This document shows positions 3,810 to 38,560 of a stretch of DNA of 64,000 nucleotides, piece by piece (position 1 is the stretch's first letter; every line of letters starts with the position of its first letter). A program made the translations under genes and the position numbers. The notes under the pieces are model-generated. The model made no database searches, was not told the origin of the DNA, and saw nothing but the letters and a program-made list of their open reading frames with translations. The DNA lies in IMG/VR virus record IMGVR_UViG_3300044695_003767. The stretch is one strand, 5' to 3'. The DNA comes from a virus.

Positions 3810-4552
3810 AGAAACTCTTTGCGGCATTTGGGTTATCATTAACTCTGGCATTTCCCGCATTTGCTAGTTCATTAGAAAAGAAGCAACCAACAGTCCCAGC
3901 ATACAGCCTTGCGTCGATGGGTTGTATGATACTCAGAGAATGTACAGAAGGAGTCGAACAACTTACACCAGATTCCACTACACTTTCTGATCCATCTTTT
4001 GATCCATTTAGAGAAGAGATCAAAAGTATTTTAACTGCTCTAAACAAAGTTAACGTTTCAGTATATATTGGGGAAAGTAGATACTTTACACCAAGAACAG
4101 TGGGGTTATATAAACCAAACTACAATCGTTTCTTTGTTAATGAAACTCTTCTTAAAGATCCAAGAGAGTTTCTAGGAACAATGAGACACGAAGGGTGGCA
4201 TGTTGTTCAGGATTGTATGGGTGGTGGAATAGAAACTTCTTTTATGGCACAGGTTCATCAAGATAATGAAATTCCATCCTGGGTAATGAAGACCACACGA
4301 CTTGCTTATGAATCTATGGGTCAGAGTCGTGCGGTTCCTTGGGAAGCCGATGCTAACTGGGCAGAAGAACAATCCAATGTAACTGCACAAAAGTTAGAAA
4401 TGTGTGCTAAAGGTCCATTATGGGAACAGATTCGACCAACACCAATGACAATGGAATGGTTGATTGGTTGTGGATGGATGAAATCACAAGAAGGTTATAA
4501 GGAATATACTCCAAATAAGAAATCGGAGTATTGTGTAGAAGGTAAATACTGA
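3806..4552 (+). CDS. Exported zincin-like metallopeptidase
   Basis: Sec signal peptide (MKKLFAAFGLSLTLAFPAFA). RHEGWHVVQD is an HExxH motif, with downstream WEADA. Confidence 0.7.
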   Translation: MKKLFAAFGLSLTLAFPAFASSLEKKQPTVPAYSLASMGCMILRECTEGVEQLTPDSTTLSDPSFDPFREEIKSILTALNKVNVSVYIGESRYFTPRTVGLYKPNYNRFFVNETLLKDPREFLGTMRHEGWHVVQDCMGGGIETSFMAQVHQDNEIPSWVMKTTRLAYESMGQSRAVPWEADANWAEEQSNVTAQKLEMCAKGPLWEQIRPTPMTMEWLIGCGWMKSQEGYKEYTPNKKSEYCVEGKY

Positions 4553-4704
4553 TGTCTGAGTTTCCGTGGGGAGTATTAATTATACTTGGATGTGGACTCA
4601 CTTTTGTAGCATATATCATTTACTACATATTAAGGTTAGCAGCATTGGAGATGAAAGATGAAAAACCTAGCAATCATTCTGTCAGCGACAAGTCTGGCGA
4701 TTAG
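4552..4704 (+). CDS. Small single-TM protein (not in ORF track)
   Basis: MSEFPWGVLIILGCGLTFVAYIIYYILRLAALEMKDEK..., TGATG overlap. Confidence 0.55.
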   Translation: MSEFPWGVLIILGCGLTFVAYIIYYILRLAALEMKDEKPSNHSVSDKSGD

Positions 4705-4870
4705 TGGAGCACTTTGTTATGGTGCTTATGTGACTTATCAAAAAGCACAAAAAATTCTGGACAACCCAGAAGAGTTTGTTGGTGCTGTTGTAGAGAAACA
4801 AGTTAACAAAGCATTTGAAAAACTACCTATTCCCAAACTAAATACTGGGAGTATTAAGTTTCCTTTCTGA
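4658..4870 (+). CDS. Small membrane-anchored hypothetical protein
   Basis: N-terminal hydrophobic helix; coupled to the next gene. Confidence 0.6.
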   Translation: MKNLAIILSATSLAISGALCYGAYVTYQKAQKILDNPEEFVGAVVEKQVNKAFEKLPIPKLNTGSIKFPF

Positions 4871-5283
4871 TGTCAAACCAAGACCCATACATATATCGTA
4901 TTCGAGAAATCCATAAAGTAGTCGATGGGGACACTATTGACGCTGATATTGATTTGGGGTTCGATATATCTCTTACTAAACGGATTCGCCTTGCTGGTAT
5001 TGATACCCCAGAAAGTCGCACGACAGATACGAACGAAAAGAAATATGGACTTGAATCAAAAGATTGGTTGAAGAAGCGTTGTGAGAACGCAAAGGATATT
5101 CTTATCAAGACTGAACTTCCAGACTCTACAGAGAAGTATGGTCGCATCATCGGACATTTGTTTATCAATGGTGAAGAGACTTCACTGAATAACCAGATGA
5201 TTGCTGAAGGTTATGCCTGGAATTATGATGGTGGAACGAAGAAAAAGAACTTTGCTGAACTGGATGCAAAGCGTAAGAAGTGA
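4870..5283 (+). CDS. Staphylococcal nuclease (SNase/thermonuclease) family protein
   Basis: KVVDGDTI, RIRLAGIDTPE, KYGRIIG, LNNQMIAEGYA. Confidence 0.9.
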   Translation: MSNQDPYIYRIREIHKVVDGDTIDADIDLGFDISLTKRIRLAGIDTPESRTTDTNEKKYGLESKDWLKKRCENAKDILIKTELPDSTEKYGRIIGHLFINGEETSLNNQMIAEGYAWNYDGGTKKKNFAELDAKRKK

Positions 5284-5495
5284 TTTATTTTAATATCGTA
5301 AGATTATTCCTTATTATTTGGAGTGCTCTAATGATTTCTGCTGTAGAATCTGTTGCGATTCGTACAGAAGGACAAGTAGAACTTGATAATGCTAGTAGAG
5401 ATTCTTATTCTAAAGTTCTTATACTTGCTGTTGGTTCTTTTCTAGGTGATGCTGCGTTTAAACTAAAGAAGAAAAATGAAACTAGCAATTCTTGA
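5280..5495 (+). CDS. Small membrane hypothetical protein
   Basis: Two hydrophobic stretches; GTGA overlap with the upstream stop. Confidence 0.5.
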   Translation: MIYFNIVRLFLIIWSALMISAVESVAIRTEGQVELDNASRDSYSKVLILAVGSFLGDAAFKLKKKNETSNS

Positions 5496-5685
5496 TTTCT
5501 TAATAATTTTAAGATTATTGACGAATGATGGAATAATGCTTGAAAATAGAAGACCTATTCCTAAGCGACAACCACCAGAAGTAATTCGTTTTGTTAGGAG
5601 ACCCGCACGAAGAGGACGTAAAAAATCTTTATATTATGATACAATTTTGTTAAATAGTAAAGATTACTTTAAGGTGTTGGAATGA
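5476..5685 (+). CDS. Hypothetical protein
   Basis: 69 aa, hydrophobic N-terminus then Arg-rich. Confidence 0.4.
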   Translation: MKLAILDFLIILRLLTNDGIMLENRRPIPKRQPPEVIRFVRRPARRGRKKSLYYDTILLNSKDYFKVLE

Positions 5686-5819
5686 CTCAAGCACCAGTAA
5701 AAGATAAAGAAGAAAAAAGGGAAAAAGATAATATTTTTCTCGAAATACTTTATAATCTTTTAGTTCAATTACCAGCAATGGTTGTTGTGTGGATTATTTC
5801 TAAATTTACTTCAGATTGA
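5682..5819 (+). CDS. Small membrane hypothetical protein (not in ORF track)
   Basis: MTQAPVKDKEEKREKDNIFLEILYNLLVQLPAMVVVWIISKFTSD. ATGA overlap, TAAATA at 5651. Confidence 0.45.
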   Translation: MTQAPVKDKEEKREKDNIFLEILYNLLVQLPAMVVVWIISKFTSD

Positions 5820-6674
5820 GAACTTAGCAGATAATTTTTTAGCAATTTTTTTAGCAGGGGCAAAGAGAGACTTAAATCTTTCTTTGCCTTCTTTTGTAAA
5901 CTTATCTTTTATTACATCATCGATAATAATTTTATTATCAATTTCATAGAGAGTATTGATTTCAACTTGGTCACGAATGTATTGTTCTACATTAGTTACT
6001 TGCTCTACTAAACGAGTTCCTTCAGCAGAGTATTCAAAAACATCTACGTGACCACCTTCTGCTAGAACGTAATGTAGAACAGGTTTGACTTGTTTTATTT
6101 TAATTTTAAATTTATTTTTTGTTGCTTCTTTGATTAGTGGTTCTGCTGCATTTTTGAGAGCATTGAGAGCTGTTGTAGATGCTATTGTCGCAGCAGTGGT
6201 CACTACTGCGACAGCACCAGCCGTAGCAACAAGAGAAGGGTCAGGTAAATTAATATCGATTCCACCGACAGTAAAGGTTGGGGTAGTTGGTTTATCTGCT
6301 GGTATTTCAGCAATCGGTACTTGAGGAGGGGGGGTTTGAGCAACCTGAGGCAGTTGAGGTGGGGAGGTATCGGGCAATCCCCTCTCCTTTGGTTTTTCTT
6401 CCTGTTGTTGCTTTTCACGTTCTGCTTTTACGGCAGCATCAAACTCTGCTTGTGTTGGAACATTAATGATTGGATATTTGATTGAAGTATCTGGCATTTC
6501 AAATACTGGAAGTGCCATTCCACGAACAACTGGAACCTCTACACTACGAAGTACTGGTGGTTCTATTGTTGAAATAACATTAGGACCATTAATGCCAACC
6601 TTTGGTATTTGATTGGCATTGTTCTTTATATTGGCAATTCCGTTGGCATTATTTATTTGCTGTATTGGTTCCAT
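5811..6674 (-). CDS. Pro-rich single-TM protein, last gene of the minus-strand module
   Basis: Pro/Gln-rich N-half, hydrophobic segment SLVATAGAVAVVTTAATIA, basic C-terminal domain. Confidence 0.75.
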   Translation of the reverse strand: MEPIQQINNANGIANIKNNANQIPKVGINGPNVISTIEPPVLRSVEVPVVRGMALPVFEMPDTSIKYPIINVPTQAEFDAAVKAEREKQQQEEKPKERGLPDTSPPQLPQVAQTPPPQVPIAEIPADKPTTPTFTVGGIDINLPDPSLVATAGAVAVVTTAATIASTTALNALKNAAEPLIKEATKNKFKIKIKQVKPVLHYVLAEGGHVDVFEYSAEGTRLVEQVTNVEQYIRDQVEINTLYEIDNKIIIDDVIKDKFTKEGKERFKSLFAPAKKIAKKLSAKFSI

Positions 6675-13578: not shown

Positions 13579-13666
13579 TCTTTTTATATCTTCATTTTTA
13601 CTTTTTGGTTCCATTGCATTATTCATTTATTGGGGACTTACACACGCATATTCAGGAGTTGTATGA
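13571..13666 (+). CDS. NdhQ-like single-TM micro-protein (not in ORF track)
   Basis: MSNLFISSFLLFGSIALFIYWGLTHAYSGVV fits the IS-xx-L-xx-G-x-IA-xx-I-x-W-[AG]-L-xx-AY pattern of the NdhQ TM helix as I recall it. It lacks the NdhQ N-terminus. ATGA-coupled to gnd. Confidence 0.55.
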   Translation: MSNLFISSFLLFGSIALFIYWGLTHAYSGVV

Positions 13667-14706
13667 GAGTAGGATTAATCGGATTAGGTCGGATGGGAGA
13701 AGGAATGTCCCGTCGTATGATGAAGGCAGGAATTGAAGTCTGGGGTTATAGAAGAAATTATGAGAAAGCACAAGAAGCATATGAGAAGGGATATGTGAAC
13801 GGTGTCACAACTTCTATACAAACCCTTACTCAAGTGGTAAAACATACTCAGAGTGGAGTATCAGACAAATATGGTCCAGGCATCTTTATGATGGTTGTAC
13901 CTGCAGAAACAGTAGAGGAGACAATCAATGAGTTACTACGATATTGTAGTGAAGGAGATATTATTATTGATCATGGCAATAGCAATTTTAAGGACAGTCG
14001 GAAGAGAGCAGAACGTCTGGCAAAACTTGGTATCCAATATATTGATTGTGGCACTAGCGGTGGTGTTTATGGTTTGGATCGTGGATACTGTCTTATGGTT
14101 GGAGGTGGAAATACTGCAGTCGCCACTTGTGCAAAGATTTTTGATGCACTCTCCCCAGGTCTCGCAGCTGCCACCAGGACTCAATTTAACTCAGACGTAA
14201 CATCTGCTGAGTTTGGTTGGTTGCATTGTGGTGGTCCAGGTGCAGGACACTTTGTAAAGATGGTTCACAATGGAATTGAGTATGGTATAATGCAGGCATA
14301 CGCAGAAGGATTTAATATCATTAAGAACGCCAATGCAGGTGCTCAGTATGTCAGAGAAGGAGATGCGGAAATTGCCCCAATGGGAGATCCCGAAAGTTAT
14401 TGTTATGATATTGATGTTGCTGAGGTTGCTGAGTTATGGCGTCGTGGTAGTGTGGTTGGGTCTTGGTTACTTGACCTTACTGCTGATGTGCTACGCAGGG
14501 ATGGTGAGCTTAAACAGTTCTCTGGAGGTGTATCCGACAGTGGTGAGGGTCGTTGGACTGTTTCTGCCGCTGTGGATCTGGGGGTTCCCGCTCCTGTCAT
14601 TACTACTGCGTTATTTGAAAGATTTAACTCACGCAATCTCGGATCGTTCGGAGCAAAAATCTTAAACGGAATGCGTTACATGTTTGGTGGTCATCACGTA
14701 AGATAA
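13663..14706 (+). CDS. gnd: 6-phosphogluconate dehydrogenase (short form)
   Basis: GLIGLGRMG, IIDHGNS, DCGTSGG, GHFVKMVHNGIEY, DSGEGRWT, MRYMFGGH. Confidence 0.95.
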   Translation: MRVGLIGLGRMGEGMSRRMMKAGIEVWGYRRNYEKAQEAYEKGYVNGVTTSIQTLTQVVKHTQSGVSDKYGPGIFMMVVPAETVEETINELLRYCSEGDIIIDHGNSNFKDSRKRAERLAKLGIQYIDCGTSGGVYGLDRGYCLMVGGGNTAVATCAKIFDALSPGLAAATRTQFNSDVTSAEFGWLHCGGPGAGHFVKMVHNGIEYGIMQAYAEGFNIIKNANAGAQYVREGDAEIAPMGDPESYCYDIDVAEVAELWRRGSVVGSWLLDLTADVLRRDGELKQFSGGVSDSGEGRWTVSAAVDLGVPAPVITTALFERFNSRNLGSFGAKILNGMRYMFGGHHVR

Positions 14707-27022: not shown

Positions 27023-27694
27023 ATGAAATTAGCTATTTGTTTTTTTGGTTATCCAAGATTTTATGATATGTGGCGGGAGAAGTTTGGTAATTTTTATTCT
27101 GGATGTGAAGTAGACTTTTATGCTCATTTTTGGGAAGATGATAATTTAGATAAAGAAAGATTAATATCTGAATTTAATTTCAAAGATGTAATCATAGAAC
27201 AACAGAAAACAGATTTTTTAGAACTTCCAGAAGAAGTAGATTTATCCAAGATTAGTAAAAATATATTTGAAACTCTTTCTCCTCTTTATTCATTAAAAAG
27301 AGTTGGTGAATTGGTAAGAAAGTTTGATTCGGAATATGATTTTGTTATTATCACAAGAACTGACATTGGTTGTATGACTGATGAAAGTTTGATTGATTAT
27401 GAATTTAATAAAGATGAACTTTATTTTTCATATGTGTTAGGTGATGAATGGTTAAACACTCATCTTGATGCTAAGTGGTTTTGTGCCTCTGCAGATAAAC
27501 TTTTAAACATATGTGACGTATATGATAATTTGACAAAATATTTGGTTGATGATAAAATATCTTTATGCCACCATAGATTATTTTTTCATAGTTTAAGAGA
27601 TTATCGTGATAAAATGAATATGGTTTGTGTAAATTCAACTAACACTAACGGTGGTTGGTTTTTTATAAGAAACGGAACACTCTCAGAAATTTAA
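27023..27694 (+). CDS. Putative glycosyltransferase of unassigned family (paralog 3)
   Basis: MKLAICFFGYPR...DFYAHFW...YDFVIITRTD. Confidence 0.6.
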   Translation: MKLAICFFGYPRFYDMWREKFGNFYSGCEVDFYAHFWEDDNLDKERLISEFNFKDVIIEQQKTDFLELPEEVDLSKISKNIFETLSPLYSLKRVGELVRKFDSEYDFVIITRTDIGCMTDESLIDYEFNKDELYFSYVLGDEWLNTHLDAKWFCASADKLLNICDVYDNLTKYLVDDKISLCHHRLFFHSLRDYRDKMNMVCVNSTNTNGGWFFIRNGTLSEI

Positions 27695-27706: not shown

Positions 27707-29134
27707 ATGAACATTTTATTTCCTATTGCTGGTCTTGGTACTAGATTTAAAAATAACGGATATATTGATCCCAAACCATTCGTAAAGTTTAAGGGAAAAC
27801 CACTGATTGAGTGGGCTATTTCATCTTTGAAACTTACTGGTAAGTATTATGTTATTGTGAATGGTTTAGAGAAAGAATATATTAAAGTTCTCAATACAAT
27901 TAAAGAAAAATATTATCTTGATCTTGAGATTGTTGATATTGGAAAATCAACTCTTGGTCAAGCAGAGACTTGTCTCTTAGGTATTCAGAAGGCTAATATT
28001 GATCCTTCTGAGCAATTGATCATTACTAATTGTGATCAGTATACTCCTTGGAACTCTAATAAGTTTTTGAGTTTCATTCGTGACAATAATCCTGATGGAG
28101 TTGTAAGCACCTACGATCATCCCAATATTCAGATTGGATCTGAAAGTCCTTATAGTCATATTGAACTTGACGATAGTGGATATGCAACTCGACTTGCTGA
28201 AAAAGTTGCCATCTCATCTCTTGCTCTCAATGGAATTTTTTATTGGAAAGAGGGTAACTATTTCATTGATAGCACTCAAAGATTAATGAATGATGATAGT
28301 GATGCTGGTTGGTCTACTGGTAAAATGTCTTGTGTCAAAGAAAAGTATGTCTCTTTGACTTACAACTATTTGATTTCTGAAGGTAAAAAGATTATGAATT
28401 ATCATATGCAAGATGATGAGTTTGTATCACTGGGAAGTCCAAATGATATTATGTTGCATATTAAGAGACAGAATGTGATGCAGGCTGTTGAAGATCTTCG
28501 TAACGGTAAACCAATCGTTATGGTTGATGATTATGATCGTGAGTTTGAAGGTGATATTGTTCTTGCTGCAGAGAAGGCAACTGAAGAAAATCTTCTTTTT
28601 GCAATGCGCCACGCAAGAGGTTTGATGTGTCTTCCCTGCACTCAAGAAAAACTTGATCAGTTTGGTATTCCTATGATGCATACAAATGGATGTGATGCAT
28701 TTGGAACTCCTTTTGCAACCAGTATTGATGCGGTTGAAGGAGCAACCACTGGTATGTCTGTTAGTGATCGTGTCGCAACTATTAGTACTTTTATTTCCGA
28801 CACTTCTAAACCATCTTCTCTTGCTCAACCTGGACATTTGTTCCCTCTTCGTGCCCGTCCTGGTCTTCTTACCGAACGTCGTGGTCATACTGAAGGATGT
28901 GTTGAGATTCTTAAACTTGCAGGTCTCAAGCAAGTCGGTGTTATCATCGAGATTATGGATGAGTATGGTAAGATGATTAAGGGTGATGCACTTAAGCAAT
29001 TTGCTGATATCTACAATCTCACTTTTGTTTCTATTGAAGAACTATATGATGAGGTTTACAATAAGGAATCTACTGGTAGTGTTCCCCTGTCTGCTGTAGA
29101 TGAAAAAACTCTTGAGTCTATGGCAAAAATTTAA
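27707..29134 (+). CDS. Fusion: sugar-phosphate nucleotidyltransferase (N) + 3,4-dihydroxy-2-butanone-4-phosphate synthase RibB (C)
   Basis: N-part: PIAGLGTRF...PKPF...GQAET...NCDQ...AEK...LGSP. C-part from ~28475: DDYDREFEGD, GLMCLP, TGMSVSDR, PGHLFPL, RRGHTEG, IEIM. One continuous frame. Confidence 0.9.
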   Translation: MNILFPIAGLGTRFKNNGYIDPKPFVKFKGKPLIEWAISSLKLTGKYYVIVNGLEKEYIKVLNTIKEKYYLDLEIVDIGKSTLGQAETCLLGIQKANIDPSEQLIITNCDQYTPWNSNKFLSFIRDNNPDGVVSTYDHPNIQIGSESPYSHIELDDSGYATRLAEKVAISSLALNGIFYWKEGNYFIDSTQRLMNDDSDAGWSTGKMSCVKEKYVSLTYNYLISEGKKIMNYHMQDDEFVSLGSPNDIMLHIKRQNVMQAVEDLRNGKPIVMVDDYDREFEGDIVLAAEKATEENLLFAMRHARGLMCLPCTQEKLDQFGIPMMHTNGCDAFGTPFATSIDAVEGATTGMSVSDRVATISTFISDTSKPSSLAQPGHLFPLRARPGLLTERRGHTEGCVEILKLAGLKQVGVIIEIMDEYGKMIKGDALKQFADIYNLTFVSIEELYDEVYNKESTGSVPLSAVDEKTLESMAKI

Positions 29135-30096
29135 TGAAGTTTACCACTAGAGCATATAATAGTTTTGCCTTAAATCCTAAAACAAAGGCAAGTATTATTA
29201 AAACTAGTGAAGAAGAAAGACTGAAGGGAGAAGCAGAATACTATCTGGATCTCCCCGATGATCTTAAAGTCTTCTTTCCTAGAATGATTAATTGTGATCT
29301 TACTCCACCATATACTATGGAACTGGAGTATTATGCTTACAATAATCTTGGAAATGTTATGGTTTCCCCTGATTATGATGATGGTTTTTGGGAAAAGACT
29401 TTTGACTTTCTCCTAGGATATATCAATGCTTACAAACAGTCAGAATCAATTCCTGCCAATAGGAAAGACTCTCTTTTAATGTTCGTAGACAAAACGGAAA
29501 AAGAGTATGTTAAGTTGATGCACGAATTTGACTTTTTTACATCTTTAAGAGTTCAGGAGGAATTTGTTTTAAATGGAAAACCCCTCAAGTCTTTTAATTT
29601 AATCTGGGGAAAACTCAAAGAGTTTATTGAAACAAAATTGATTGAAGATAATTTTTATTTCATTCACGGTGATCTTTGCTTCAGTAATATCCTTTATGGT
29701 ATTAATCCAATTACAGATGATTTAATTCTTAAGATGATTGATCCTAGAGGAGTATTTGGTGAGACGAAATACTTTGGGGATCCTTACTATGATCTGGCAA
29801 AAATTTCACACTCTTGTAATGGTGGATATGAATACTTTATCTACGATCAGTTTAAAGTAGACGTTGATTCAAATCAGTTTTTTCTTGATTTTAAAAACGA
29901 GTCTAACAAAGATAAAATTAATTCTAAGTTCATAAGTCTTGTTAAAAAATTTGACTTTGATTATCAGAAGATTAAACTTATTGAAGGATGTATCTTTGTT
30001 GGTATGTGTGCCAGACACTATGATAGTTTGGAAAGACAAAAGGCTATGTTTATCACTGGTCTTAAAATACTAAATGAAATTTATGAAACACTATAG
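29134..30096 (+). CDS. Aminoglycoside-phosphotransferase-fold (sugar) kinase
   Basis: TRAYNS, HGDLCFSNI, IDPRG, GDPYYDLAKISHS; TAATG-coupled to the fusion gene. Confidence 0.8.
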   Translation: MKFTTRAYNSFALNPKTKASIIKTSEEERLKGEAEYYLDLPDDLKVFFPRMINCDLTPPYTMELEYYAYNNLGNVMVSPDYDDGFWEKTFDFLLGYINAYKQSESIPANRKDSLLMFVDKTEKEYVKLMHEFDFFTSLRVQEEFVLNGKPLKSFNLIWGKLKEFIETKLIEDNFYFIHGDLCFSNILYGINPITDDLILKMIDPRGVFGETKYFGDPYYDLAKISHSCNGGYEYFIYDQFKVDVDSNQFFLDFKNESNKDKINSKFISLVKKFDFDYQKIKLIEGCIFVGMCARHYDSLERQKAMFITGLKILNEIYETL

Positions 30097-30439
30097 ATTT
30101 TGTTTTGATCTTGATGGAACTTTGTGTTACACAAGAAAGGAAAATGAACATTACAGTGAAGTAAAACCAATTCCTGGAGCAGTAGAAACCCTTCAGAGGT
30201 TAAAATCTGAAGGTCATTATATTATTATTATGACTGCAAGAAATATGGTTACTCATAATAATAATATTGGTAAAATTATTGCCAAACAATCACCTATTGT
30301 GGTAGAATGGTTAAATAAGCACGGTATTCCTTACGATGAACTTCACTTTGGAAAACCACTTGCAGATTTTTATGTTGATGATAAAGCAGTCAAATTAGAA
30401 GACTGGAATACTTTTAATAAATCTTTGGAGCAATTATGA
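30083..30439 (+). CDS. HAD-family (capsule-biosynthesis type) phosphatase
   Basis: FDLDGTL, MTAR, GKP, YVDDKA. Confidence 0.85.
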   Translation: MKHYRFCFDLDGTLCYTRKENEHYSEVKPIPGAVETLQRLKSEGHYIIIMTARNMVTHNNNIGKIIAKQSPIVVEWLNKHGIPYDELHFGKPLADFYVDDKAVKLEDWNTFNKSLEQL

Positions 30440-31260
30440 GAGATTTTTTCTTTGATACAGCCAATGTAGACTTTATAAAATCTACTATGGAAAAATATGG
30501 ATCTGATATTGATCCTAAATTGGTTCGTGGTGTAACTACAAATCCTAATGCATTTAGTAAAGTTGATAAGTATCATCTTGATGAGTGGTTGAATCATGCT
30601 GTTGTAATGGGTAAACTTGTTTCCGAAATTCGTGGAGACAATGAAGGTGAAATTCATATTCAAGCACCATATTCCTATCTTGACCCAAAAGTTATTCTGG
30701 AATATGCAAAAATAATCACTGATGCAACTCAGGGAACTTGTAAAGTTGGTATGAAAATTCCTCCATACCAAAAAGTTCTTGAGTATGTCGATCAGTATAA
30801 TGAATATGTAATTACCAATGTAACTGGTCTTGCAGATTCATCAACCGCTCTTAAGTGTTGTACTTATGATGTTGGTTATATCAGTATTATTCCTGGTCGT
30901 ATGGAAGAAGTTGGTATTGATGCTCAATCAGCAATTGCATTTGTAAATCAATGTAATTTTGGAAATACTCAAATTATTACTGGAAGTCAAAGGACAACTG
31001 AACAAATCATTTATTCTTTCTACTTGGATACCGTTCCTACAATTGGTGAAAAGTGCTGGGCAGATATCTTCCAAGGTGATAACTTTCAACGTATTCTGAA
31101 TATTGAATATGGTTATGAACCTGTTGGTCAATTTAGTCCAACAATTTCACAAGATAATATTAATCTTTCCCTTGCTTTCTTTGAACAAATGGATGGGTTA
31201 GGTGATACTGCTCGTAAAGATTTAGAGGAAAGGCTTTCTAATGAAAATAGCATTTCATGA
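30436..31260 (+). CDS. Divergent transaldolase / fructose-6-phosphate aldolase family protein
   Basis: FFDTAN, GVTTNP, GMKIP (Schiff-base Lys), NVT, PGRM, GSQR. Non-canonical at the positions that distinguish TAL from FSA. Confidence 0.8.
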   Translation: MRDFFFDTANVDFIKSTMEKYGSDIDPKLVRGVTTNPNAFSKVDKYHLDEWLNHAVVMGKLVSEIRGDNEGEIHIQAPYSYLDPKVILEYAKIITDATQGTCKVGMKIPPYQKVLEYVDQYNEYVITNVTGLADSSTALKCCTYDVGYISIIPGRMEEVGIDAQSAIAFVNQCNFGNTQIITGSQRTTEQIIYSFYLDTVPTIGEKCWADIFQGDNFQRILNIEYGYEPVGQFSPTISQDNINLSLAFFEQMDGLGDTARKDLEERLSNENSIS

Positions 31261-34737: not shown

Positions 34738-34853
34738 ACAAAATTTTTACTGAAAAAGCAGAACGTATTAACGGTTGGGCTGCGATGATTGGATTCGTTG
34801 CTGCTGCTGGTTCGTACCTTGTAACTGGTCAAATTATTCCTGGCGTATTCTGA
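34734..34853 (+). CDS. hli: High-light inducible protein (not in ORF track)
   Basis: [39 protein letters not shown] (AERxNG, TGQIIPG). Confidence 0.9.
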   Translation: MNKIFTEKAERINGWAAMIGFVAAAGSYLVTGQIIPGVF

Positions 34854-34864
34854 TGGAGGTTAAA

Positions 34865-35392
34865 ATGCGTAGTGAAGGATATACTGTTCCTGAAGTTCAA
34901 TTTCAGTTTCGTGAGAATGGTGAGTTTGTAAACCGTACAACTTCAGAACTCTTCAATGGAAAGCGTGTGGTCATTTTTAGTCTGCCTGGTGCTTTCACTC
35001 CTACTTGCAGTGCCTATCAGCTTCCTGGATTCGAAGAGAGATACGATGACTTTATTAGTCTTGGCATCGACAATATTTACTGCATCTCTGTTAATGATGG
35101 GTTTGTGATGAATGCCTGGGCACAGGACCAGAACATTGATAAGGTCAAACTCATTCCAGACGGCAATGCTTATTTCACACGTTCTATGGGAATGCTTGTC
35201 AATAAGTCTAACCTTGGTTTCGGCGATCGCTCTTGGCGTTATGCTGCGGTCGTGGATAACGGAATCATCGAAAAACTATTCGTTGAAGAGGGGAGACGGG
35301 ACAATGCCGACACCGACCCTTATGAGCAAACTACTCCGGAAAATGTTCTAGAGTATGTGTCAGCAAATGTAAAAGTCGGCACTACAGTTTGA
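34865..35392 (+). CDS. Type II (Prx5-like) peroxiredoxin
   Basis: LPGAFTPTCS, SVNDGFVMNAW, PDGN, RSWRYA; GGAGG RBS. Confidence 0.92.
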   Translation: MRSEGYTVPEVQFQFRENGEFVNRTTSELFNGKRVVIFSLPGAFTPTCSAYQLPGFEERYDDFISLGIDNIYCISVNDGFVMNAWAQDQNIDKVKLIPDGNAYFTRSMGMLVNKSNLGFGDRSWRYAAVVDNGIIEKLFVEEGRRDNADTDPYEQTTPENVLEYVSANVKVGTTV

Positions 35393-35811: not shown

Positions 35812-36894
35812 ATGACTGCTTCAATTGCTTCACGTCAACAACAATCGAATATTTGGGAACAGTTTTGCAACTGGGTTACTTCAACCGACAACCGCATCTA
35901 TGTGGGGTGGTTTGGTGTATTGATGGTGCCTTGCCTACTTGCTGCTACAACTTGTTTCATCATCGCATTCATCGGTGCTCCTCCTGTGGACATTGATGGT
36001 ATTCGTGAACCCGTTGCTGGTTCACTCATGTACGGAAACAACATCATCTCTGGTGCTGTGATTCCTTCGTCCAATGCTATTGGACTGCACTTTTATCCTA
36101 TCTGGGAAGCTGCTTCCCTAGATGAGTGGCTTTATAACGGTGGTCCCTTTCAACTAGTTGTGTTCCACTTCCTGATTGGTATCTACGCCTACATGGGTCG
36201 TGAGTGGGAACTCTCTTATCGTCTGGGTATGCGTCCTTGGATCTGTGTTGCTTACAGTGCTCCTGTCGCTGCTGCGAGTGCAGTGTTCCTGGTCTATCCT
36301 TTCGGTCAAGGTTCTTTCTCTGATGCGATGCCTCTGGGTATTTCTGGTACGTTCAACTACATGCTTGTGTTCCAGGCAGAGCACAACATCCTGATGCACC
36401 CCTTCCATATGCTTGGAGTTGCTGGTGTGTTCGGTGGTTCTCTGTTCAGTGCTATGCACGGTTCTCTGGTTACTTCCTCGCTGGTTCGTGAAACCACTGA
36501 GAACGAGTCACAGAACTATGGTTATAAGTTCGGTCAAGAAGAAGAAACCTACAACATTGTAGCTGCTCACGGTTATTTTGGTCGCCTTATCTTCCAATAT
36601 GCTTCCTTCAATAACTCACGTTCGCTGCACTTCTTCCTTGCTGCTTGGCCTGTAGTTGGCATCTGGTTCACTGCTCTTGGTGTAAGCACCATGGCATTTA
36701 ACCTTAACGGATTTAATTACAACCAAAGTATTCTTGACTCCCAAGGTCATGTAATTAACTCCTGGGCTGATGTTCTTAACCGTGCTAATCTTGGTTTTGA
36801 GGTGATGCATGAGAGAAACGCCCATAACTTTCCTCTGGACCTTGCTGCTGCAAGCAACATTCCTGTTGCTCTTACCGCACCTGCAATCGGTTGA
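35812..36894 (+). CDS. psbA: Photosystem II D1 protein, intronless, Glu130 (high-light-type) form
   Basis: Full-length D1: [37 protein letters not shown] plus C-terminal extension. Confidence 0.99.
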
Positions 36895-37477: not shown

Positions 37478-37498
37478 TGAGAAATGACAATGGAGACT

Positions 37499-38560
37499 AT
37501 GGTTTCTTCTACACTTTCACAACCAATTTCACAGAGAGGATGGTTTGATGTCTTGGATGACTGGCTTAAACGAGATCGCTTTGTCTTTGTGGGTTGGTCT
37601 GGACTACTTCTTTTTCCCACTGCTTATCTTGCGCTTGGTGGCTGGCTTACTGGCACAACGTTTGCTACAAGTTGGTACACCCACGGGATTGCGTCTTCTT
37701 ACCTTGAAGGCTGCAATTTTCTTACAGCAGCAGTGTCAACTCCTGCTGACGCTATGGGTCATTCTCTTCTTCTACTTTGGGGTCCTGAGTCTCAGGGAGA
37801 TTTCGTCCGCTGGGTCCAACTTGGGGGACTCTGGCCTTTTGTGGCACTCCACGGTGCCTTTGCTCTCATAGGTTTCATGCTTCGTCAGTTTGAAATTGCA
37901 CGTTTAGTAGGAATTAGACCGTACAATGCTATTGCGTTTTCTGGGCCTATCGCTGTTTTTGTCAGTGTGTTTCTCATGTATCCACTCGGACAGTCATCTT
38001 GGTTCTTTGCGCCGTCGTTTGGTGTTGCTGCGATTTTTAGGTTCCTCCTATTCTTACAAGGTTTCCATAACTGGACGCTCAACCCCTTTCATATGATGGG
38101 AGTTGCTGGTATACTGGGAGGAGCACTACTCTGTGCGATTCATGGAGCAACAGTAGAAAACACTCTATTTGAGGACAGTGAGCAAGCAAATACATTCAAA
38201 GCATTTGAACCTACGCAAGAGGAAGAGACTTACTCAATGGTTACTGCGAACAGATTCTGGTCACAGATTTTTGGTATCGCTTTTAGTAATAAGCGTTGGT
38301 TGCATTTCTTTATGCTTTTCGTTCCCGTTATGGGTCTTTGGACTTCTTCTATCGGCATCATCGGTCTTGCTCTTAACCTCCGTGCTTACGACTTTGTATC
38401 TCAGGAAATTAGAGCAGCAGAAGACCCCGAGTTTGAAACCTTTTACACCAAGAACATTCTTCTAAATGAAGGACTTCGTGCTTGGATGGCTCCTGTAGAC
38501 CAACCTCATGAGCAGTTTGTATTTCCAGAGGAAGTTTTACCTCGGGGCAACGCACTCTAA
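37499..38560 (+). CDS. psbD: Photosystem II D2 protein
   Basis: [23 protein letters not shown]...[10 protein letters not shown]. Confidence 0.99.

Follow-up and report, generated by a model that had tools for sequence, protein, structure and literature searches.

A conserved viral gene block that may feed the riboflavin intermediate DHBP into nucleotide-sugar synthesis

Four overlapping genes in a cyanophage sugar island

We analyzed a 64,000-nucleotide stretch of viral DNA (IMG/VR record IMGVR_UViG_3300044695_003767, called the window below) that carries, at positions 27707-31260, a block of four genes for a nucleotidyltransferase (NT) fused to RibB, the synthase of 3,4-dihydroxy-2-butanone-4-phosphate (DHBP), a small-molecule kinase, a HAD phosphatase and a divergent aldolase that we call TalX (Table 1). 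The block aligned end to end with Synechococcus phage S-SKS1 (NC_020851), a cyanophage that has a genome of 208 kb and was isolated on WH7803, at 81.8% nucleotide identity and with identical gene order, and this match, along with psbA-type genes, gnd, lysozymes and large structural genes elsewhere in the window, points to an S-SKS1-like cyanophage as its source. The complete S-SKS1 genome was taken as a proxy for the whole genome of the window phage. Successive genes overlap by 1, 23, 4 and 20 nt, and both this coupling and the domain content agree with a previous reading made from the sequence alone. The block is enclosed in a tightly packed run of sugar genes, all on one strand, of ~18 kb (16.3-33.8 kb), which encodes a GDP-mannose 4,6-dehydratase and a GDP-fucose-synthase-like short-chain dehydrogenase/reductase for sugar synthesis, a GT10 fucosyltransferase, transferases with GT47-like, GT25 and GT32-type domains, and methyltransferases of the FkbM type and others.

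The fusion is a single uninterrupted open reading frame (ORF) that matches phrog_3980 end to end. Residues 259-447 of its RibB half match Pfam DHBP_synthase (PF00926; E 6e-65, 218.7 bits against a cut-off of 26.4), the half scores 186.8 bits with the NCBIfam ribB equivalog-domain model TIGR00506, above the cut-off of 177.45, and it aligns without gaps over 192 residues with E. coli RibB (1G57) at ~45% identity. This alignment agrees with the sequence-only reading, which had described an in-frame fusion with the RibB motifs kept and an Asn-to-Phe change: RE-x-EGD, the Cys, TTGxSxxDR, PGH, RGHTE and the late Glu are all retained. The catalytic motifs are invariant in 8/8 aligned RibB sequences from related modules, and by these residues the domain looks active. 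The Phe is confined to the S-SKS1 clade, and in other, more distant RibBs of the module the position is occupied by Asn or Gly; we therefore rejected it as a mark of new function and regard it as a clade-specific substitution. The RibB half is also richer in G+C than the NT half (0.405 against 0.328), as had been noticed before, but the recent capture read from this did not hold up, as the gap lies wholly at codon positions 1 and 2 and G+C at the third codon position is equal in both halves (0.241 vs 0.247), indicating an effect of amino-acid composition.

The absence of any other riboflavin gene from the window was confirmed for the 30 window ORFs that we scanned against Pfam. In the complete S-SKS1 genome, neither lumazine synthase (PF00885) nor GTP cyclohydrolase II (PF00925) gave a match, while positive controls for the two models fired in 14/14 and 10/14 genomes, respectively; with S-SKS1 as the proxy, no rib operon explains the domain.

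The NT domain (residues 1-255) matches Pfam NTP_transferase marginally (PF00483; 23.0 bits against a cut-off of 21.2), carries the N-terminal GxGTR signature (IAGLGTRF...KP) and has 4EVW as its best solved relative (E 1.5e-9). Its relatives include GalU, ManC, HddC and MurU, as well as IspD and LicC, the latter of the phospho-alcohol type, with the matches to IspD, MobA-like nucleotidyltransferases and LicC being weak. An exhaustive profile search of 1.8 billion proteins returned 3540 representatives of the family, which are mostly stand-alone proteins of ~240 aa, the others being fused to a HAD phosphatase or to GT61 glycosyltransferases or forming tandem NT-NT proteins of ~500 aa. NT-HAD fusions are ~365 aa long and fall into many clusters, part of them from contigs of T4-like marine phages (L010, for example); the surroundings of these fusions in L010 and in a contig from JGI did not hint at the sugar. 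Among the 150 best NT-domain representatives, three are NT-RibB fusions, at 73%, 43% and 34% identity.

No Pfam match was obtained for the 320-aa kinase, and a homologue in a RibB-less viral locus (L037) matches PF01636. Its AlphaFold2 (AF2) model (pLDDT 92.9) matched maltokinase, glucosamine kinase, methylthioribose kinase, NahK and aminoglycoside phosphotransferases (APHs) with a Foldseek probability of 1.0, and this APH/choline-kinase fold group has among its members maltokinase, NahK and methylthioribose kinase, which phosphorylate sugars at the anomeric position. The motifs HGDxxxxN and DPRG are invariant in 30 homologues (H178, G179, D180, N185 and D203). The protein shares 40% identity over 82 residues of the catalytic core (E 7e-14) with the AfhE C-terminal domain (AfhE-CTD) from E. 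coli phage HY126; the alignment does not extend beyond these 82 core residues and no NT is fused to the kinase here, so that the kinase is best described from its sequence as a homologue of AfhE-CTD and not its orthologue. The same core matches RB69-type phage proteins labelled 'GlmU' or 'hypothetical'.

The 121-aa HAD phosphatase presents the nucleophile motif DxDGT as FDLDGTL, matches the EcbF-BcbF capsule phosphatase model TIGR01689 at E 1.5e-27 (96.1 bits, under the 162-bit cut-off) and is 31% identical to HY126 AfhF over 107 aa (E 3e-13). The protein is labelled 'phosphoheptose isomerase' in RefSeq (S-SKS1 SWZG_00040; L001, 14377-14733) and in PHROGs (phrog_1238), and as it contains no SIS domain, this label appears to be a propagated misannotation.

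TalX scored 43.5 bits with Pfam TAL_FSA (PF00923, cut-off 27) and 29.7 bits with TIGR00875 (fsa_talC_mipB), whose equivalog cut-off is 245.95. We read its residues from an alignment to the Thermoplasma acidophilum transaldolase (TAL) and 19 TalX sequences from the module. In common with TAL, fructose-6-phosphate aldolase (FSA) and TalC (of T. acidophilum, E. coli and cyanophages, respectively), TalX has the TIM-barrel TAL_FSA fold signature and retains Asp, Asn, Thr, the Lys that forms the Schiff base and a pair of phosphate-binding Arg. It also keeps a Ser typical of dihydroxyacetone-using transaldolases. In contrast, the TAL Glu is replaced by Gln, as at the Gln59 position of FSA, and Ile stands in place of the TAL Phe or FSA Tyr. 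A C-terminal extension of ~60 aa is conserved. Metagenomes hold at least 200 cluster representatives of TalX on the same long contigs as the kinase, and S-SKS1 encodes a separate, canonical talC elsewhere. TalX is a distinct subfamily of the TAL/FSA superfamily and, judged by its residues, seems to be a functional class I aldolase whose substrate is phosphorylated and whose active site has changed.

Table 1. Genes of the block and other features of the window, in the coordinates of the 64,000-nucleotide stretch
Feature	Coordinates	Strand	Basis
NT-RibB fusion, 475 aa (NT aa 1-255; DHBP synthase aa 256-475)	27707..29134	+	Pfam, NCBIfam, phrog_3980
Small-molecule kinase of the APH/choline-kinase fold, 320 aa, predicted to phosphorylate a sugar phosphate at the anomeric position	29134..30096	+	Fold, motifs, AfhE-CTD homology
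Small HAD phosphatase, 121 aa, predicted terminal-phosphate phosphatase of a sugar bisphosphate	30074..30439	+	Pfam HAD, TIGR01689, AfhF homology
TalX, divergent class I (Schiff-base) TAL/FSA aldolase, 274 aa	30436..31260	+	Pfam TAL_FSA
GT-A-fold (GT6-like) paralogue 1, 223 aa, which may transfer the product	27023..27694	+	AF2, Foldseek, phrog_13607
GT-A-fold (GT6-like) paralogue 2, 242 aa	26290..27018	+	Clustering, phrog_13607, weak DUF7796 match
GT-A-fold (GT6-like) paralogue 3, 264 aa	24385..25179	+	Clustering, phrog_13607
Gnd, 6-phosphogluconate dehydrogenase	13630..14706	+	Pfam NAD_binding_2 + 6PGD
Methyltransferase, 368 aa	25182..26288	+	Methyltransf_23 + sugar C-methyltransferase C-terminal domain
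Porin-like protein, 512 aa	10210..11748	+	SLH domain + OprB carbohydrate-selective porin domain
Peroxiredoxin-type gene	34775..35392	+	Redoxin
Photosystem II reaction-centre gene	35812..36894	+	Photo_RC
Photosystem II reaction-centre gene	37484..38560	+	Photo_RC

Conservation of the module in viral and cellular loci

With the kinase as query, 38 IMG/VR loci were retrieved and each was scored for every function. RibB and TalX were found together in 27 of the 38, and 26 of these also had NT and HAD; in the remaining one (L039), the single-sequence HAD query scored nothing. Kinase identity across these 27 loci ranges from 37% to 90%, and NT and RibB occur both fused and unfused. Both RibB and TalX were missing from 10/38 loci, all but one of which have a kinase identity of 33% or less, and the last locus is interrupted by a contig end. 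No locus with only one of RibB and TalX was seen among the 38. The window's four-gene order recurs in L002, where an NT-RibB fusion at 43% identity is followed by proteins of 321 aa, 119 aa and a TAL_FSA protein, while L003-L007 encode the functions separately (NT of 242 aa, RibB of 201 aa, kinase of 329 aa, TAL of 269 aa and a small protein of 122 aa), and gene order differs among the contigs with the unfused module. The linkage of NT, RibB, kinase, HAD and TAL is thus conserved down to 37-45% protein identity. An assembly artefact or a one-off fusion was rejected as an explanation, as the isolate genome S-SKS1 and many independent contigs carry the fusion.

Two of these settings hold further genes. 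In GROS21 metagenome contigs L003-L006 (2432-3484), the NT and a DUF1796-annotated gene of 223 aa have just upstream of them a gene for a radical SAM protein and three genes of ~315 aa that lack annotation. The P0112 contig, which has a distant NT-RibB fusion, encodes at 4071-6423 a TAL_FSA protein of canonical size, then a GHMP kinase and a CTP_transf_like gene, that is, a second aldolase-kinase-nucleotidyltransferase set of a different type.

Among cells, the hits numbered at least 558 and were spread over many phyla of bacteria and archaea; 80 of these loci were scored. Kinase, NT and HAD were present in 61/80, and RibB in a single one (L054), together with TalX. This locus, the sole 'cellular' one with the full set of RibB, kinase, NT, HAD and TalX, is a 7.2-kb contig of a Saprospiraceae metagenome-assembled genome, and because the contig is short, it may stem from a prophage or from a viral fragment placed in the wrong bin. 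The trio of kinase, NT and HAD without RibB and TalX is widespread, with at least 558 loci, cellular (sampled in L050-L129) plus the viral L037, and its hosts include Myxococcota, Bacteroidota, Planctomycetota, Firmicutes, Legionella, Variovorax, Paenibacillus, Xenorhabdus and Thaumarchaeota. Apart from AfhE/AfhF, the trio seems to be uncharacterized. A conserved fourth gene was sought beside the cellular trios, and the clustering of their neighbors collapsed into one large component. RibB is itself rare in phages, matching 11/50,697 phage records. Since RibB and TalX are either both present or both absent in viral and cellular loci, they behave as a pair added to the widespread trio.

A proposed route from ribulose-5-phosphate to a nucleotide sugar

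We propose that the block encodes a conserved viral nucleotide-sugar pathway whose carbon skeleton comes from DHBP, a reading that we consider fairly probable. RibB would convert ribulose-5-phosphate into DHBP and formate, and TalX, as an FSA-like Schiff-base aldolase, would join DHBP to a two- or three-carbon partner to give a sugar with a terminal phosphate. The APH-fold kinase would then phosphorylate the anomeric hydroxyl to a 1,ω-bisphosphate, the HAD phosphatase would remove the terminal phosphate to leave a sugar-1-phosphate, and the NT domain would turn this into an NDP-sugar that the GT6-like paralogues encoded upstream could transfer to a glycan, within an island that makes a fucose-containing one. 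The identities of the domains, their intact catalytic residues, the conserved co-occurrence, the lack of flavin genes and the AfhE and AfhF homologies are observed; the order of the steps, the use of DHBP by TalX and the product we infer from gene context.

As the kinase and the HAD phosphatase are homologous to AfhE and AfhF, respectively, the order from terminal phosphate to 1,ω-bisphosphate, sugar-1-phosphate and NDP-sugar has an experimentally grounded precedent. In the UDP-D-arabinofuranose pathway (E. coli phage HY126, RB69, DLP3), as reported in PMC13326640, an arabinose-5-phosphate isomerase makes arabinose-5-phosphate (Ara5P) from ribulose-5-phosphate, AfhE, which unites an NT and a kinase, adds a phosphate at C1, the HAD phosphatase AfhF takes off the one at C5, and the NT of AfhE yields UDP-arabinofuranose (UDP-Araf), the series Ara5P, Araf-1,5-P2, Araf-1-P and UDP-Araf having been shown experimentally (He et al. 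2026, Nat Chem Biol, doi 10.1038/s41589-026-02150-z). The two systems likewise start at ribulose-5-phosphate and share a homologous APH-fold kinase and small HAD; they differ in the supplier, which there is the isomerase and here RibB with TalX, in the partner of the NT, which is fused to the kinase in AfhE and to RibB here, and in the destination, as that product is reported to go on DNA and the present module lies in a glycan island. The HY126 isomerase, used as a query, found no homologue in any module locus, and by analogy RibB and TalX would occupy the sugar-phosphate supply position that it holds in HY126. The same kinase, HAD and NT order acts on a terminal-phosphate sugar derived from the pentose-phosphate pathway in GDP-D-glycero-alpha-D-manno-heptose synthesis (GmhA, HddA, GmhB, HddC), where HddA is a GHMP kinase, in contrast to the APH fold here, and the precursor comes from sedoheptulose-7-phosphate by an isomerase, with neither RibB nor an aldolase. 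The analogy with HddA, GmhB and HddC drawn in the sequence-only reading is strengthened by the AfhE-CTD and AfhF homologies. The activation logic is known, and the kinase and HAD phosphatase are new members of AfhE/AfhF-type families.

The supply of the skeleton by RibB and a dedicated aldolase is what we did not find described in the literature. Searches for DHBP synthase with a nucleotidyltransferase or glycosyltransferase, for ribB with cyanophage and for DHBP with aldolase and nucleotide sugar returned nothing relevant, and of these genes the S-SKS1 literature mentions gnd and tal alone. To our knowledge, DHBP has so far been known only as the precursor of the flavin xylene ring. RibB of riboflavin synthesis is fused, in RibBA, to GTP cyclohydrolase II, whereas the RibB described here is fused to a sugar NT, and in the modules RibB occurs in obligate linkage with an aldolase and the three sugar-activation functions.

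If DHBP entered an aldol reaction directly, in either role, the resulting sugar would be branched or deoxy. In structure, DHBP corresponds to glyceraldehyde-3-phosphate, the normal TAL/FSA acceptor, as its methyl-ketone analogue, so that it may serve TalX as an acceptor; with glycolaldehyde or dihydroxyacetone as donor, this would give 3-C-methyl-pentose-5-phosphate or 4-C-methyl-hexulose-6-phosphate, which could form a furanose with a terminal phosphate, as an enzyme like the Ara5P kinase needs. We put forward the resulting C-methyl-branched pentofuranose or hexulofuranose tentatively, as our most specific guess, and give it a fairly low probability. As a donor through C3, DHBP would instead yield a product with a phosphooxymethyl branch. 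That DHBP is the carbon source of a new nucleotide-activated sugar, most likely C-methyl-branched or deoxy, made by aldol chemistry and not by methylation dependent on S-adenosylmethionine, mainly in abundant marine viruses, and installed by a viral GT6-like family, is a fuller statement to which we give slightly less than an even chance.

Several points weigh against this proposal. Ketones are poor aldol acceptors and unusual ones for TAL/FSA enzymes, we know of no TAL/FSA enzyme that uses DHBP, and the DHBP made by RibB is the (S) isomer, opposite in configuration to D-glyceraldehyde-3-phosphate. TalX has neither the TAL Glu nor the FSA Tyr, and its chemistry may differ from both. Domains that are fused need not catalyze consecutive steps, the relatives of the NT include, by sequence, phospho-alcohol transferases such as LicC, and BLASTP found no similarity between the NT domain and that of AfhE. 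The trio also occurs without RibB and TalX in L037 and most cellular loci, and therefore the pair could serve another, linked purpose. Everything past the identity of the domains is guilt by association.

Among other uses of the same genes, TalX alone could build a sugar phosphate (pentose-5-phosphate or ketose phosphate) from central metabolites, with DHBP becoming a separate, non-carbohydrate four-carbon substituent on the same glycan, or with RibB acting on another substrate. FSA-type enzymes do make arabinose-5-phosphate and ketose phosphates from common metabolites, TalX keeps the Ser mentioned above, and the kinase and HAD resemble enzymes of the Ara5P pathway. However, if TalX sufficed, it would be expected without RibB, and it was so seen in no module; no gene stands out as encoding an enzyme that could attach a group derived from DHBP, and a RibB above the equivalog threshold with a canonical active site argues for ribulose-5-phosphate as the substrate, so that we regard this scheme as rather unlikely. 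DHBP, being a phospho-alcohol as glycerol-3-phosphate, ribitol-5-phosphate and phosphocholine are, could also be activated directly, the fused NT forming an NDP-dihydroxybutanone from which a phospho-dihydroxybutanone unit is transferred, while TalX, the kinase and HAD make or recycle another sugar. There is a parallel in CDP-ribitol synthesis (Bcs1 or TarI-TarJ), where an enzyme of ribulose-5-phosphate is fused to or paired with a nucleotidyltransferase and the product is activated for a glycopolymer; a reductase acts there instead of RibB, and no kinase, phosphatase or aldolase is needed. A RibB-NT fusion would suit consecutive steps, the weak matches of the NT to IspD, MobA-like nucleotidyltransferases and LicC fit such a substrate, and a second NT of the same family in L025, L029 and L032-L036 could serve the kinase and HAD branch. 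Yet the window and S-SKS1 show one NT of the family, which leaves that branch with none, and many loci encode NT and RibB in two genes, at times with kilobases between them (L007, L022, L030 and L039). The strict co-occurrence of RibB and TalX would go unexplained, and NT-HAD fusions of the same NT family point to HAD acting before NT on a sugar-1-phosphate; we judge direct activation unlikely.

The domain might instead be an ordinary riboflavin auxiliary gene that boosts host flavin synthesis during infection and sits in a sugar cluster by accident, which we hold to be highly improbable. In its favor, the domain is a canonical RibB, metabolic genes such as gnd, talC and psbA are numerous in cyanophages, and the host has the remaining pathway, as seen in the control genome of Synechococcus elongatus. 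Against this, kinase, TalX, HAD and NT stay linked to it across lineages with 37-90% kinase identity, in fused and unfused form, RibB is missing whenever TalX is missing and is otherwise almost unknown in phages, and S-SKS1 is without lumazine synthase and GTP cyclohydrolase II. The last alternative concerns the destination of the sugar and not its synthesis: the same chemistry could supply a sugar for phage DNA bases, as in arabinosyl-5-hydroxycytosine of RB69 and HY126, in place of a surface or virion glycan. The sole characterized relatives of the kinase and phosphatase do serve DNA hypermodification, but the island's GDP-fucose synthesis, its GT10, GT25, GT47 and GT32-type domains and its methyltransferases are typical of polysaccharide or glycoprotein synthesis, and no base-hydroxylating thymidylate-synthase homologue was seen beside the module, the whole genome not having been searched for one. 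We consider a DNA target quite improbable. As for the proposal that DHBP is diverted from flavin synthesis to a glycan building block, which the sequence-only reading had first made, computation turned up no artefact or one-off, no loss of linkage, no dead RibB motifs and no rib operon to refute it; the interpretation is supported, with its biochemistry drawn from gene context.

Neighboring genes and meaning for viral metabolism

Immediately upstream of the block are three GT-A-fold paralogues, which we regard as the likeliest transferases for the product. Their family is present in 16/19 non-redundant module loci and also adjoins the RibB-less trio in L037. The AF2 model of paralogue 1 (pLDDT 86.9) found GT6 enzymes in all of its top 50 Foldseek matches, the best being ABO blood-group transferases, alpha-1,3-galactosyltransferase and BoGT6a (E down to 5e-8), at TM-scores of ~0.5-0.6 and an identity of ~10%, values that support the GT-A fold and not family membership beyond the fold. 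Just upstream of paralogues 1 and 2 lies the 368-aa methyltransferase, which may modify the same sugar as the module. In L007 and L008, the gene immediately upstream of the NT is a homologue of 368 aa (Methyltransf_23), and 5/19 module loci contain a member of the family.

The window encodes Gnd, as had been noted before, and this enzyme is a possible source of ribulose-5-phosphate; its membership in the pathway is presumed, since gnd is a common cyanophage auxiliary gene. Other genes of the window lie outside the sugar island. The SLH and OprB domains of the 512-aa protein form the architecture of cyanobacterial outer-membrane porins and make it an unusual phage auxiliary gene. A peroxiredoxin-type gene follows just downstream of the island, and two photosystem II reaction-centre genes stand close together.

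In S-SKS1, the block is annotated as 'DHBP synthase', 'hypothetical', 'phosphoheptose isomerase' and 'transaldolase'. If our proposal is true, the riboflavin intermediate DHBP would for the first time have a use other than flavin synthesis, and there would be a new way to build an unusual, probably branched, sugar skeleton. Hundreds of marine viral clusters that at present bear the labels 'riboflavin synthesis', 'transaldolase', 'phosphoheptose isomerase' or 'hypothetical' would then gain a function, and through these labels viral 'auxiliary metabolic genes' of the pentose-phosphate pathway and of vitamins would be counted too often. As S-SKS1 and its host WH7803 are both in culture, the pathway is directly testable. 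The proposal would also point to a widespread, uncharacterized kinase-phosphatase-nucleotidyltransferase trio of bacteria and archaea, with its at least 558 loci, which may be a general activation route for furanose or ketose sugars.

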